20,800 bases of DNA from an uncultured Nitrososphaerota archaeon (GTDB lineage: Archaea > Korarchaeota > Korarchaeia > Korarchaeales > Korarchaeaceae), in contig CAZUBM010000027.1 in assembly GCA_964618805.1 (NCBI GenBank), positions 1-20,800 on the forward strand, given 5' to 3'. The notes beneath the pieces are model-generated. The model made no database searches, was not told the origin of the DNA, and saw only the letters and a program-made list of their open reading frames with translations. Positions 1 to 5,765 of this stretch are shown here, piece by piece. Numbering within the stretch: the stretch's first letter is position 1; each line of letters starts with the position of its first letter. A program made the translations under genes and the position numbers.

Positions 1-827
<827 letters not shown>

Positions 828-1018
828 CTGAGCCGCAAGGCCCTACCTTCTTTGCACGGAGGATTTTCGGGCTCTTTCAAGCGTGAGGGTGCCCCCCATT
901 ATGGGGGTTTTCCTCACGCCCACATTAAACGTGTTGCCACGATTGGAAAACGGGTTTCATCCAGTCGGGATTTTCCTTCATCCCGATCGGACCCGTTACC
1001 GGGACATCGTGGCAGTAC
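828..1018 (-). other. 5' external transcribed spacer of pre-16S rRNA
   Basis: Lies between the TATA box (1045-1038) and the mature 16S 5' end. Contains hairpins 919-881 and 1014-935. The segment ~875-840 likely forms the 5' strand of the processing stem, whose partner is outside the window. Confidence 0.75.
932..1014 (-). ncRNA. Putative H/ACA-box pseudouridylation guide hairpin within the rRNA leader
   Basis: Lower stem TGCCACGAT(1014-1006)/ATCGTGGCA(943-935) is followed directly by ACA (934-932). Pocket GTCCCGGT/TTCCA. Upper stem AACGGGT/ACCCGTT. K-turn CCGA + CTG-GA-TGA. Apical stem TCGGGAT/ATCCCGA. There are 14 nt from the pocket top to ACA. Confidence 0.75.
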
Positions 1019-2027: not shown

Positions 2028-2453
2028 TTATGAAGAACTCTTTGTTTTCGCCCCTTTTTGGGCTTTTTTCATTGCTAAGTTTATCCTTTCCTCTATTTGA
2101 CTAATTTGTGATTGAATTGATGCTAGAGCTTTCTGTCCTTGTTCTATCCTTGAATCCAGCTCCTCAATAGCTCTTTCAAGCGACATCTCAGCGTAAACAT
2201 TTGAGCCTAGAAGAACTAGTACCTTTTCTGGGTTTACGTTGTCAACTAACAGGCCAATAAAGTTGCCTGCAGGAACTATCATCCTATCCACGCCCTCTTT
2301 CCTGTCTCTAAGAGATTTCAAAGAGCGAAGCGTCTCTTTGCTCCTAACTAAGTCGTTTATTATCATGTTGAGACGATTTGCCTCATCAACTAAAGCCCTA
2401 TAGATAGCACTTAGCGTTTCAAGATCCTCTGCTCCTCCTCCTGAAGACGACAA
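2028..2453 (-). CDS. pfdA: Prefoldin subunit alpha
   Basis: Coiled coil - beta hairpins (IVPAG..., VLVLLGSNVYAE) - coiled coil; usual position after eif6. Start placed at TTG 2453 behind GGAGG (ORF track extends to 2513). Confidence 0.9.
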   Translation of the reverse strand: MSSSGGGAEDLETLSAIYRALVDEANRLNMIINDLVRSKETLRSLKSLRDRKEGVDRMIVPAGNFIGLLVDNVNPEKVLVLLGSNVYAEMSLERAIEELDSRIEQGQKALASIQSQISQIEERINLAMKKAQKGAKTKSSS

Positions 2454-2509
2454 TCCTTTTTCCTCCCACCCTAGATATTCCATCAAATAAGTTAAGTTTA
2501 AGTTATACC

Positions 2510-3178
2510 TCACTCGAGACCGAAGGCCTCAATTATAGTTTCAAGCTCCCAAGGGGTAGTAAGTTCTCCAACCAAAGCTCCTTTATCATTTGCAACTATA
2601 CCTAATTTTAGGTATCTAACTCCCCTATTCACTGTTCCTTTAAGGATATCAACTTCGAATAATTCCTTTAGTTTCTTAATCTCCTCATCCGATGTTTGAG
2701 GCGGGACTAAGCCGCCTTTATTTGTAACAACAGCTATGGATCCAGGTACTGGATAACCTGCAATCGTCCCCTTCATAATTTCCACCTTCAGCAGTTGCTT
2801 TATTCTCTCAGCCTCTCCTTCTTTGAACCAAGGGCTGATCAAAGCTCCATAATCGTTCGTAAGTATGACGTTTCCGAAGGCATTTATCGCAAAATCTAAG
2901 GGATATAGAGGAATTTCTAAGCTATTCTGAAGCAGTTCAAACTCCTCCTTTGTTATGAGATAAGGCACTAAAATACCATTTCTATTTCCAGAGAGGAATA
3001 TTCCCAGCAATTGGCTTTGGTAGATCAAAGTTTCTATTGGACTTACCCCGAAGCACTCGATTACTTTTTCCTTAAAGGATGATGGGGTGTGCTGGGGGAC
3101 AAACACCTGGTCTCCTATCGTTTTTACAAAAACCCCTATGTTCTCGTTACCCTGAAATTTAGTTTTCAAAACAGGCAA
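2510..3178 (-). CDS. eif6: Translation initiation factor 6 (aIF6)
   Basis: NIGVF, GNVILTND, GTIAG..PGS, GTVNRG, VANDKGALVG..TT..E repeats. Likely TTG start at 3178 behind GGTG (alternative GTG 3187). Confidence 0.96.
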   Translation of the reverse strand: MPVLKTKFQGNENIGVFVKTIGDQVFVPQHTPSSFKEKVIECFGVSPIETLIYQSQLLGIFLSGNRNGILVPYLITKEEFELLQNSLEIPLYPLDFAINAFGNVILTNDYGALISPWFKEGEAERIKQLLKVEIMKGTIAGYPVPGSIAVVTNKGGLVPPQTSDEEIKKLKELFEVDILKGTVNRGVRYLKLGIVANDKGALVGELTTPWELETIIEAFGLE

Positions 3179-3189
3179 GCATGACACCG

Positions 3190-3465
3190 TTACTCATGAG
3201 CTGGCAGGATCTTAACCAGCCCTTCCTCGTCATCATACTCTGCTCTAACTTTTATCGTTCGAGGGGGATTCTCTGCACCTTTACTCCAGATTAATGCGTT
3301 GAGTTCTGGGTGCATGATTATTTTTACATCTTTCTCAAGCTTCATTTGCTTTCTCACCCTCTCTTTTATTATTTTAGCCGTTCTAGCAGCCCTTTTCTTT
3401 CTGGGATACTTCTCTCTTACGATCGTACCAATTCTGAACACGAATTCCTTCACTATCTTTGCCAT
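3190..3465 (-). CDS. rpl31e: 50S ribosomal protein L31e
   Basis: PRKKRAAR..., LNALIWSKG..NPPRTIKV motif; ATG 3465 with SD GGGTG. Confidence 0.95.
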   Translation of the reverse strand: MAKIVKEFVFRIGTIVREKYPRKKRAARTAKIIKERVRKQMKLEKDVKIIMHPELNALIWSKGAENPPRTIKVRAEYDDEEGLVKILPAHE

Positions 3466-3476
3466 AAGGAACACCC

Positions 3477-3629
3477 TTATAGCTGAAGCCTGCTCCTTCT
3501 CCAGTTTCTAGTAGGTCCAGGCCTTACTTTTCGACCAGTCTTAAGGTAAACCCACAGGGGCATCCTTTTGTTCTCATTGATGGCCCTTGCATACCTAAGC
3601 TTGCTACCAAGAGATCTGTTTCTAGCCAT
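3477..3629 (-). CDS. rpl39e: 50S ribosomal protein L39e (50 aa, missing from ORF track)
   Basis: Hand translation MARNRSLGSKLRYARAINENKRMPLWVYLKTGRKVRPGPTRNWRRSRLQL; P.WV..KT and R.WRR motifs; canonical position before rpl31e. Confidence 0.96.
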   Translation of the reverse strand: MARNRSLGSKLRYARAINENKRMPLWVYLKTGRKVRPGPTRNWRRSRLQL

Positions 3630-3639
3630 AAAACATCCC

Positions 3640-3924
3640 TCAAATGACTCTTATGGTGAAATCCCTCTTTCCACTCTGACTTAATCTTGCAAGCAGAGTC
3701 TTTAACTCAGAATCTGATAGCCTTCTGTTGAGTTTCCCTGCAGAGTAAAGTTGGAGGAGATATATCTTGGCGTTCCTAGCCAATGTTGGTTTCACAAGCT
3801 CAACCCTTCTTAGCCTTGCCCAAGCTTCAGAGGTTAGGAGCTGTCTAACTATCATGTTTAGCTCCTGTTCTTTCCTTAACCTTTCAGCCTCCTCGCTATC
3901 TTGGGAATCTGGTATGTAGCTCAT
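3640..3924 (-). CDS. PDCD5/TFAR19-like DNA-binding protein
   Basis: [36 protein letters not shown]; canonical position after rps19e. Confidence 0.92.
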
Positions 3925-4373
3925 ATGATCTCTATCACCCCCGGTTCTCTTCCTATTTCGGATAAGATCTCTCCTGCTAATTTATCTAGCAATGACTGCC
4001 CTTTAGGAGTTATCTTTCTTCCTTTTCTCTCCACCTTCTCCAGCAATCCTGCTTGTTCCAGTTGTTGCATTATCTTTCTAATAACATGTCCGCTAGCCTT
4101 TCTAAAGTGTTCGGGTCTGACTCCTCTATCCTTCCTTCCTCCATATTTCGTCCTAAGCTTCTCAACCCCGATCGGACCTCTCAAGTAAATGGAGCGTAAA
4201 ATTGAAGCCGCTCTTATGTACCACCAATCCTCCTGTTGTGGCGGCCTCTCCCTATGACTCCCCGTTTTTACATATTTAGCCCATTCTGGAGGCTGGATCT
4301 CTGGTATTTCCTTGAGTTTTTCCTTCAATCTTTCTATAAGCAAATCTGCAGGAACATCTCTAGCAGTTGGCAA
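3921..4373 (-). CDS. rps19e: 30S ribosomal protein S19e
   Basis: [40 protein letters not shown] motifs. Likely TTG start 4373 (alternative GTG 4379). Confidence 0.98.
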
Positions 4374-4445
4374 CAGCACACCCCCTAACCGAACACGTCA
4401 TAGCCTCATCTTGATGCTAATATCCTAGTCGAAAAGCATGATATG

Positions 4446-4805
4446 TCAGCGTTTTAAACCTTCACGTAACTTCCTCTTCTCTCTGATGTAAGGTCGTCTA
4501 TTTATACTACCACATTTTAGACACCTTATCGTTAAATGAGGGTAATTCTCTGATCTAGTCCTTACAACTGCAGTAACTCCTGGGAATAACAAGGTCTTGC
4601 AGGACCTGCAGAACCTCCACTTCCACTCTGAAGGGATCGGTACCCTACATCTTATTGATATTTTCCTAGCAAGTTCTCCATATCTCTCTGCAAGCGAGAT
4701 ATCCTCTTTTGACACTTTATCAGCAAGTTTAAGCAATATCCTTATCCTTTGTCTTGCTATCCTCTTAGCCCTAAGCTTTCTCTCCTTAAATCTTTTCTTT
4801 CTCAA
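4446..4805 (-). CDS. rnp4: Ribonuclease P protein component 4 (Rpp21)
   Basis: IARQRI..L, FCRSC...PG...RCLKCG zinc ribbon. Likely TTG start overlapping the nep1 stop (TTGA) with SD AAGGTGG. Confidence 0.93.
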   Translation of the reverse strand: MRKKRFKERKLRAKRIARQRIRILLKLADKVSKEDISLAERYGELARKISIRCRVPIPSEWKWRFCRSCKTLLFPGVTAVVRTRSENYPHLTIRCLKCGSINRRPYIREKRKLREGLKR

Positions 4806-5482
4806 GGAGACCACCTTAGCGCATAGAAGAGATATGAAAGTAGCATGCAAATAGCTGCAGAAGCTGAAATTACTTCTTCACAGAGGCTGATTTTCTCATC
4901 AATGATCTCCCTAACCTTCTCTGAATAATCCCCGTGAGGAAAGCCGCCAACGATTATGACAGTATCTTGATTCAAAGCTTCCTTTGCCACTTTTATTGGA
5001 TCTTCCAACTTTCCTCTATCACTTAGTGCTATTTTGCGCTTGGGAGAAAGAATTTTGATGAGAGATTTTAGGTCTAAATTAGTTTCTTTTATGAGAGGTT
5101 TGTCCCTAGGACCTACACTCCCCTTTATGAGGAGCTGTTCCATTAGGCCAAGGAACCTGAGGTAGTTCCTGGGCAACCTTGTAGCTGGATCTACCTCAAA
5201 TATCCTTCCTTCGTATGTGTGTAGGTATAATTTCATGGGAAAACTCAGTTTAAGCGGAGAATCCAAAATTGCAAGCAAAACTCTATGCACTACATCTGGC
5301 CTACCTCTCTTCTCTTGGTCCGGAATGATCACTTCCTTTAAAGGAAGGAGGGATGAAATGTCAAAAACTATCTCTTTTGGTTTCTTGCCCCTGGATTTGG
5401 CCATCATCTTAATGGGTTGAAAAGAAGCCATCCTCTTTGGAACCAGTTCCAGAGAAGCATCAGCTACGATTATGGAGAGCAC
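4802..5482 (-). CDS. nep1: 16S rRNA pseudouridine N1-methyltransferase Nep1 (Emg1), SPOUT fold
   Basis: LELVP, RGRPDVVH, RLPRNYLRFLGLMEQLL and VGGFPHGD motifs; GTG start, probably leaderless. Confidence 0.96.
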   Translation of the reverse strand: MLSIIVADASLELVPKRMASFQPIKMMAKSRGKKPKEIVFDISSLLPLKEVIIPDQEKRGRPDVVHRVLLAILDSPLKLSFPMKLYLHTYEGRIFEVDPATRLPRNYLRFLGLMEQLLIKGSVGPRDKPLIKETNLDLKSLIKILSPKRKIALSDRGKLEDPIKVAKEALNQDTVIIVGGFPHGDYSEKVREIIDEKISLCEEVISASAAICMLLSYLFYALRWSP

Positions 5483-5564: not shown

Positions 5565-5663
5565 GCGGCCGTAGTCTAGCCTGGCAGGATGGGGGCCTGC
5601 CACGCCCCAGCGAGGTATTCAAGCCTCGGGGAAACCCGGGTTCGAATCCCGGCGGCCGCACCA
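5565..5663 (+). tRNA. tRNA-Gly(GCC) with 23-nt intron at position 45/46 (5611-5633); CCA encoded
   Basis: Acceptor GCGGCCG/CGGCCGC, anticodon arm GGGGC-CTGCCAC-GCCCC, T arm CCGGG-TTCGAAT-CCCGG. The insert forms a bulge-helix-bulge. Confidence 0.95.
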
Positions 5664-5693: not shown

Positions 5694-5765
5694 GGCCGCG
5701 GTGGCGTAGCGGTAGCGTGGGGGCCTGTGGAGCCCCTGGCCCGGGTTCGAATCCCGGCCGCGGCC
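5694..5765 (+). tRNA. tRNA-His(GTG), G-1 encoded, CCA not encoded
   Basis: G-GCCGCGG/CCGCGGC-C acceptor, anticodon arm GGGGC-CTGTGGA-GCCCC, TTCGAAT loop. Confidence 0.96.

Follow-up and report, generated by a model that had tools for sequence, protein, structure and literature searches.

The DNA analysed here is a stretch of 20,800 nucleotides (nt) from an uncultured archaeon of the GTDB phylum Korarchaeota (genome G000, contig CAZUBM010000027.1), referred to in its full length as the window. On the minus strand, the leader of its ribosomal RNA (rRNA) operon carries a hairpin of 83 nt (1014 to 932). Sequence and comparison strongly support its assignment to the archaeal box H/ACA guide RNAs of the classic, single-hairpin type, located where the precursor rRNA has its 5' end. 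We further propose that these ~83 nt, as the head of the 16S-23S transcript, serve as a guide that acts on the 16S head of the same precursor, a reading that we favour as fairly probable. The target would probably lie in the same operon's 16S, in the region from helix 31 (h31) to a site 13 nt 3' of the h31 uridine (the +13 site). An earlier note on this DNA had proposed such a guide hairpin at the 5' end of the pre-16S transcript, and both the leader position and the conservation of the element support that proposal.

Structure and position of the leader hairpin

Read along the minus strand, the operon begins with a promoter TATA box, TTTATATA, at 1045 to 1038, followed by the hairpin and by the 16S rRNA gene from 827 onwards, so that the hairpin lies within the leader, on the rRNA strand and without a further promoter of its own before the 16S. 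The same order of promoter, hairpin and 16S was found in 37 of 37 genomes of the phylum. The box, which was read from the sequence, ends 23 nt before the hairpin, and the hairpin start thus coincides with the expected archaeal start site; on this spacing, transcription would begin near 1014. TTTATATA is unchanged in an alignment of five leaders of the same genus, and in other genera a TATA-like box was read from the leader sequences 21–24 nt 5' of the hairpin. Judged from its position, the hairpin would be co-transcribed with the 16S.

The hairpin opens with the 5' strand of the lower stem, UGCCACGAU (1014 to 1006), followed by the 5' guide strand of the pocket, which consists of GUCCCGGU (1005 to 998) and an adjoining AA and was read from the sequence as 1005 to 996. 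For the AA, pairing within the upper stem and pairing with a target are both possible. The 5' strand of the upper stem, AACGGGU (997 to 991), leads into an apical module (990 to 956) with the motifs GA (988–987), AUGAAGG (981–975), CCCGA (969–965), and GAUGAA (961–956). The 3' strand of the upper stem, ACCCGUU (955 to 949), the 3' guide strand UUCCA (948 to 944), the 3' strand of the lower stem, AUCGUGGCA (943 to 935), and the ACA box (934 to 932) complete the element. UUCCA and ACA were read directly from the sequence. Sequence, minimum free energy (MFE) fold, and covariation agree on both strands of the lower stem, and fold, alignment, and covariation on those of the upper stem. The lower stem comprises 9 base pairs (bp; 1014–1006 with 943–935) with the ACA directly 3' of it, the upper stem pairs as AACGGG(U)/(A)CCCGUU, and the distance from the top of the pocket to the ACA is 5 + 9 = 14 nt. 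The MFE fold (−40.2 kcal/mol, z = −3.56, equalled by 1 of 200 shuffles) contains the lower and upper stems as read.

For archaeal H/ACA RNAs, lower stems of 7–9 bp, ACA distances of 14–16 nt, and GA stems of 8–11 have been reported (PMC4652768); lower stem and ACA distance of the window hairpin fall within these ranges. An automated parse of 24 unique sequences of the hairpin family gave lower stems of 6–9 bp, an ACA after a spacer of 0–2 nt, and pocket-to-ACA distances of 13–17 nt, mostly 14–16. The hallmarks listed in the earlier note, that is a 9-bp lower stem, the ACA, a bipartite pocket, and the 14-nt distance, were borne out by the sequence and the MFE fold, and the hairpin recurs at the same place in 37 of 37 genomes.

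The apex may have to be read differently from what had been suggested. The previously described kink-turn (K-turn) register, with a 7-bp C-stem and a CUG bulge, is a single-sequence MFE reading, whereas comparison favours two pairs of GA/GA motifs. Apical letters kept throughout the phylum are a GA by the upper stem, R-A-U-G-A-R-G-G, C-C-(Y)-G-A, and a further (U)GA by the upper stem. By eye, the conserved GA/GA motifs lie 9–11 layers above the pocket; the register in the window is ambiguous (7 bp, two mismatched or bulged layers, then GA). A short apical helix (helix 3), which the two putative K-turns would share, covaries, with GC17/GU7/AU3/UA1 at one pair and AU14/GC9/CG1 at another. The apical motifs are probable L7Ae sites, and the apex may be formed by two back-to-back K-turns with a common helix of 2–4 bp.

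Downstream of the guide hairpin, a second leader hairpin, GCGUGAGG...CCUCACGC (919 to 881, minus strand), was read from the sequence; it is kept within the genus, and similar ones occur in other genera. The segment from 874 to 841 probably forms the 5' strand of the stem at which the 16S is processed, as judged by alignment to the leader of G002, a genome of the same genus, where the equivalent stretch is complementary to the 16S-23S spacer. The guide thus lies 5' of this stem and would stay tethered to its substrate until the stem is cut. The 16S itself (827 to 1, minus strand, Rfam model positions 1–807) is interrupted by the contig end before h31, and the assembly of G000 contains neither another 16S piece nor a 23S.

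Conservation and covariation in the phylum

The collection comprised 43 genomes of the phylum, 37 of them with an assembled 16S 5' end. All 37 of the latter, in which the leader is visible, carry a hairpin between the TATA-like box and the 16S. Family f1, to which 30 of the loci belong, was assembled by automatic search (27 loci) and with hand-set anchors (3 loci); the remaining seven hairpins are those of G022, G025, G027, G028, G029, G030, and G031. The ACA and the UCC of the 3' guide are unchanged in 24 of 24 unique family sequences, and the ACA also occurs in the seven further hairpins. The 5' pocket core CCCGG(U/C) is kept in families f1–f3, while both stems vary. Freely varying stems combined with a fixed UCC and ACA are the pattern expected of a guide.

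A covariance model (R1), built on 10 seed sequences with a manually assigned structure, detected 31 of 31 phylum loci with E ≤ 6e-5. On five loci from outside the phylum it gave no match apart from one with E = 0.38, which lay on a transfer RNA (tRNA). A second model (R2), used for whole-genome searches, gave exactly one match per genome in the phylum (27 of 27), without exception located in the 16S leader; 124 archaeal genomes from elsewhere gave no match. The hairpin is single-copy in G000.

In the model-fitted alignment, 95.0% of cells are paired, compared to 71.9 ± 1.0% after shuffling and 38–55% with slid partners, and both-sided (compensatory) changes occur in 21 of the 23 modelled pairs; as this alignment was fitted to the model, it is biased towards the structure, which weighs against our interpretation. 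RNAalifold on a plain MAFFT alignment recovered the lower stem alone. Both-sided changes were counted in 8 of 9 pairs of helix 1, the lower stem (32 sequences), and in all 9 pairs of helix 2, the upper stem. The size of the effect, together with the plain sequences, leaves little doubt that the structure covaries. The leader alignment across the phylum called for in the earlier note has thus been made; it shows covarying stems and a conserved ACA and pocket core.

Complementarity to the 16S head

Targets were read on G002 because the 16S of the window stops at model position 807 and lacks h31. G002 is the only genome of the same genus with a full 16S, its leader is 93% identical to that of the window, and its 23S is cut at model position 1956. 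Since GC-rich matches dominated when RNAduplex was used with an N linker, that approach was replaced by a scan that counts base pairs. With the window pocket, the top 16S match in the G002 rRNAs was GGAAA-UC-UUACCGGGG, with 14 bp and the canonical gap of 2 nt. Its uridine, U947 in G002, lies 13 nt 3' of the h31 uridine.

The earlier note had expected the pocket to form 7 bp with GCCGGGA at h31. Other genera do carry this motif, and the family h31 reads AAUUGGAC-U-CAAC-GCCGGGA; the h31 of G002 reads AAUUGGAC-U-CAAC-GCCGGAAA and lacks GCCGGGA, so the expected pairing is weak in that genome. Three further candidate sites were rejected. The alternative target that had been considered weaker, GGAA-UU-GGCGGGG (around E. 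coli 920), reads GGAAUUGACGGGG in G002 and is absent from the top matches listed, and no match of the window pocket to the helix 34 (h34) site of the Thermococcales guide Pab19 was found by eye in G002. Helix 21 (h21, 16S ~575–600) gave the strongest duplex in lineages g1, g2, and g3; it is lost in G013, G006, G014, G017, and G008 although their pockets are kept. In g1, g2, and g3 the pocket is strongly complementary to UGGAAGAC ... CUGCCGGGGAU (window 205–260, minus strand), with a target hairpin between the two segments.

As a share of the shuffled pockets scores as well as the real one, complementarity in a single genome is no proof of a target. A comparison covered twelve genomes, each with rRNAs of its own, grouped as eight lineages. 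The h31 site (UUGGA-CUCAA-CGCCGGG and variants, 5–6 nt unpaired) recurs in eight of eight lineages; it is the sole site to do so and has the top summed score, 93. The +13 site follows with seven of eight lineages and a sum of 83. It is canonical in g3 (CGGGAA-UC-UUACCGGG), while the canonical match of g2 lies two bases further on (GGAAUC-UU-ACCGGGG). None of the 23S sites recurs in all eight lineages. The variable U/C position of the pocket stands, by eye, opposite a G at h31, where both letters pair, and opposite an A at the +13 site, where C cannot. Within the window's genus, the pocket fits the +13 site better; across lineages, h31 is the site that is conserved. The comparison supports the 16S head around h31 as the most consistent target. 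The proposal of h31 as the target in the earlier note is partly supported by its recurrence across lineages and left weak by G002, where 22 of 40 sites do equally well.

Hairpins with other pockets point to the same segment. The type B pocket (family f4), GCGUUA / AAUCCA, would fit the consensus h31 canonically (UGGAU-UC-AACGC). Type C (family f5, G031) resembles Pab19 and matches both h34 (12 bp) and h31 (UUGGA-UUCA-ACGCCG, 11 bp). Families f6 and f58, from outside the phylum, have leader hairpins with a 3' pocket strand AUUUCCAA/G that resembles that of the window, and the pocket of G032 (f6) matches UUGGA-UUCA-ACGCC. These f6 and f58 hairpins, with an ACA, are located ~90 nt 5' of the 16S (L084:299–367, plus strand, and the L118 leader). 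Taken together, the four pocket types (A, B, and C in the phylum, and that of f6/f58) each show complementarity to UUGGA...AACGCCGGGA, in windows that overlap; the different 5' guides cover overlapping windows of this one 16S segment, and the pairing of UCCA with UGGA is common to all.

As a positive control, the Pab19-type guide of a Thermococcales genome was scanned, and its validated h34 site was a tied top match (14 bp; 14 distinct sites). This guide also fits the h31 loop (UUGGA-UUCA-ACGCCG, 11 bp; L136, 16S ~917 of G037), a possible second target of which no mention was found in the published descriptions consulted. A strict H/ACA detector returned five candidates in 45 leaders of other archaeal lineages and none on the reverse strands. 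The detector is insensitive, as it missed a Pab19-like hairpin recognized by eye (G034 leader, L086), and the window hairpin is not among the top 25 candidates listed. Throughout G000 it gave 173 candidates, none of which is a convincing canonical h31 guide. The best-scoring of these lies outside the window (C5:44777–44858, minus strand) and has a 10-bp lower stem, the pocket CCACAUGA / ACUAGU, a GA stem of 10, and an ACA. Its pocket has no match in the 16S or the partial 23S of G002, and it may be a second H/ACA RNA aimed elsewhere.

According to the mechanism that we propose, L7Ae would bind the GA motifs as the leader emerges, and Cbf5-Nop10 (with Gar1) the lower stem together with the ACA. 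The pocket strands (5' UCCCGGUAA, 3' UUUCC) would then pair with the 16S head ~1 kb downstream in the same precursor and place a uridine into the active site of Cbf5. The predicted sites are U947 (G002 numbering; E. coli ~979), with a canonical pocket, and U934 of the h31 loop (G002 numbering; E. coli position 966), with a loose pocket; at the latter, hypermodification by Nep1 and Tsr3 would follow. The genome encodes Cbf5 (DKCLD domain), Nop10, Tsr3, and Nep1/EMG1. For a target in h31 it is relevant that Nep1 is an enzyme that needs a pseudouridine there.

Several observations weigh against this mechanism and its targets. A search for RNA sequencing runs that contain the stretch returned none. 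The sites were read on another genome of the genus. In G002, the h31 pairing amounts to AUUGGA + GCCGG (6 + 5 bp) with 6 nt unpaired, and across lineages 5–6 nt are left unpaired at h31. Of 300 trials with shuffled pockets, 36 gave a canonical score as high as the best one, and 83 matched the top score with any gap. Other conserved rRNA sites come close to the h31 and +13 sites, with sums of 82, 81, and 78. At the +13 site, U947 is replaced by C in G025 and G029, and lineage g5b has no match. The h31 of G029 itself, a type B genome, differs at two positions and forms ~3 bp with the 3' guide by eye. Moreover, Gar1 was not found in G000 with the Pfam model, which misses one archaeal control too; the genome is 93.7% complete.

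Part of this evidence could also mean that a real H/ACA leader guide has its true target elsewhere, in the 3' half of the 23S, in a tRNA, or at another 16S site, the matches around h31 being chance products of a short GC-rich pocket. We consider this unlikely, yet it deserves to be kept in mind: shuffled pockets do as well as the real one in 12–28% of trials, several other conserved sites come within ~10% of the h31-site scores, the 23S of G002 is truncated, and the eight targets of sR435, an H/ACA RNA of Sulfolobus islandicus, are taken by its authors as a sign of how hard prediction is (PMC11077068). Against it stands that four different pocket types retain complementarity to overlapping windows of one h31 segment. 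The two predicted sites, moreover, correspond to two mapped S. islandicus pseudouridines that have one guide in common (PMC11077068), and a 23S site recurrent in all lineages was not seen. The proposal that the particle with its H/ACA fold is an assembly chaperone or processing factor, similar to snR30/U17, makes use of the same matches. By eye, the f1–f3 pocket pairs with UUGGA and (C)GCCGGG, which together make up the h31 stem, and leaves the loop free, so that a guide tethered to the precursor might keep the 16S head open; snR30 provides a precedent. The steady distance of 13–17 nt between ACA and pocket in the automated parses, in turn, suggests that the catalytic geometry is retained, g1, g2, and g3 offer a canonical 2-nt pocket at or near the +13 site, and catalysis in vitro has been demonstrated for the related Pab19 (PMC2377435). 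On balance, we rate a chaperone as quite unlikely.

The H/ACA likeness might also be a coincidence, the hairpin being a mere structured leader element such as an L7Ae-binding or processing signal. K-turns do occur in archaeal rRNA spacers, and Rfam has no family above threshold for the hairpin: in a permissive scan the sole suggestive match was Pab19 (RF02794), full-length, with 20.7 bits (E 0.29), far under the gathering score of 55, so that the hairpin falls outside the Pab19 family as Rfam defines it. The full-length alignment speaks weakly for an H/ACA guide, the low score against one. Conservation of the ACA, of the unpaired pocket, and of the 14–16 nt spacing while the stems vary would be hard to understand for such an element, and G031 has a pocket like that of Pab19, for which activity has been proven. 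We therefore regard it as very improbable and retain the proposal of a guide acting on the 16S head of its own precursor.

Known guides, wider meaning, and gene neighbourhood

The earlier note knew of no H/ACA guide embedded in an rRNA leader. This view is superseded, since the kind is already known from Pab19/Tba19 in the 5' external transcribed spacer (ETS) of Thermococcales. In Pyrococcus abyssi, Pab19 actively guides modification of 16S U1017 as an H/ACA RNA of non-canonical form (PMC2377435). According to a 2026 preprint, each of the 34 Thermococcales genomes examined there has the homologue Tba19 in its 5' ETS, for a reason that its authors state is not understood. The Pab19 element was also present in two leaders inspected here, those of G037 and G071. 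As far as the literature that we located goes, the arrangement is described for Thermococcales only, and no description of a leader H/ACA element in the phylum of the window was found.

With Pab19/Tba19 the window element has in common that it is a single H/ACA hairpin within the rRNA operon upstream of the 16S and, as predicted here, with its own 16S as the target and a non-canonical pocket; one member of the phylum, G031, even has a Pab19-like pocket. According to the published descriptions, Pab19 differs in targeting h34 (U1017), in having one more stem-loop on its 5' side and a 5' guide of 15 nt, and in its location ~200 nt upstream of the 16S. The window element has another pocket sequence without an h34 match and starts at the predicted transcription start, and models R1 and R2 do not detect Pab19.

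The classic H/ACA RNA sR435 of S. islandicus has eight sites in all, among them 16S-U930, which corresponds to the yeast m1acp3-pseudouridine 1191, and U943 (PMC11077068). The distance of 13 nt between U930 and U943 equals that between the two sites predicted here, a likeness based on the published targets. The sR435 pairings at both sites are weak (8–11 bp with mismatches), and its further targets, 16S-U58, U477, 23S-U2597, a tRNA, and CRISPR RNAs (crRNAs), set it apart from the window element (PMC11077068). In yeast, the H/ACA guide snR35 makes the h31-loop pseudouridine, which Nep1 methylates and to which Tsr3 adds the 3-amino-3-carboxypropyl (acp) group; Nep1 and Tsr3 are encoded here as well, whereas snR35 is a separately encoded, trans-acting eukaryotic small nucleolar RNA with a canonical pocket. 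Similarly, snR30/U17 is an H/ACA ribonucleoprotein that pairs with the pre-18S, for processing rather than modification. It uses motifs at the pocket base. It is eukaryotic and separately encoded, and nothing in the present data indicates a processing role.

The hypermodification of the h31 nucleotide is conserved from archaea to humans, and, in the literature as far as located, an archaeal guide for its first step has been assigned only in S. islandicus. New here are the presence of a leader guide in another phylum unrelated to the first (37 of 37 genomes), its predicted position at the very start of the transcript, and a pocket sequence that varies between families; its notable features are the start at the 5' end, the re-aiming of the pockets, and what may be a double K-turn. 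Tentatively, the leader-borne H/ACA guide might be an old and widespread archaeal device, a self-guiding precursor in which the pocket was re-aimed along h31 (AACGC, ACGCC, ACGCCG, CGCCGGG, GCCGGGA) and then to h34. It might include an unusual back-to-back pair of K-turns and supply the phylum's missing guide for the nucleotide that Nep1 and Tsr3 hypermodify, and Pab19 may serve h31 too. This broader picture is possible but doubtful. The comparison makes it testable whether tethering of guide and substrate ensures early and complete modification of the 16S head.

The Nep1/EMG1 gene, coding for the pseudouridine-N1 methyltransferase of h31, is located ~4 kb upstream on the same strand (5482 to 4802, minus; profile match 160.8 bits). 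It is the first gene of a minus-strand cluster that runs towards the rRNA promoter (window 2028–5482) and continues with Rpp21, S19e, a PDCD5-like double-stranded DNA-binding protein, L31e, eIF6, and a prefoldin subunit. Among the 29 f1 genomes that show both, 25 have Nep1 on the 16S strand, 4.0–5.1 kb upstream of the 16S; in the other four, the two are on separate contigs. It is 0.6 kb from the 16S and divergent in two of two f3 genomes and far from the 16S in f2 and one f4 genome; in f5 and the second f4 genome it is found on a separate contig. As the cluster is a general translation cluster, this synteny is a hint rather than evidence.

A carbamoyltransferase gene (1059–1997) is situated between the Nep1 cluster and the rRNA promoter. 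On the plus strand, a tRNA match at 5565–5660 spans 96 nt for a model of 71 positions and thus probably contains an intron; a second tRNA follows at 5695–5765. The 23S of G013 (L065:1990–5537), a full model match, measures 3548 nt compared to 2993–3063 nt in seven relatives and probably carries an intron or insertion of ~500 nt. Furthermore, an RNase P RNA gene was found ~30–140 nt 3' of the 23S on the same strand in G008 (L073:5205–5496), G014 (L068:1087–1363), and G012 (L072:5229–5516), and might be transcribed together with the rRNAs as one unit.
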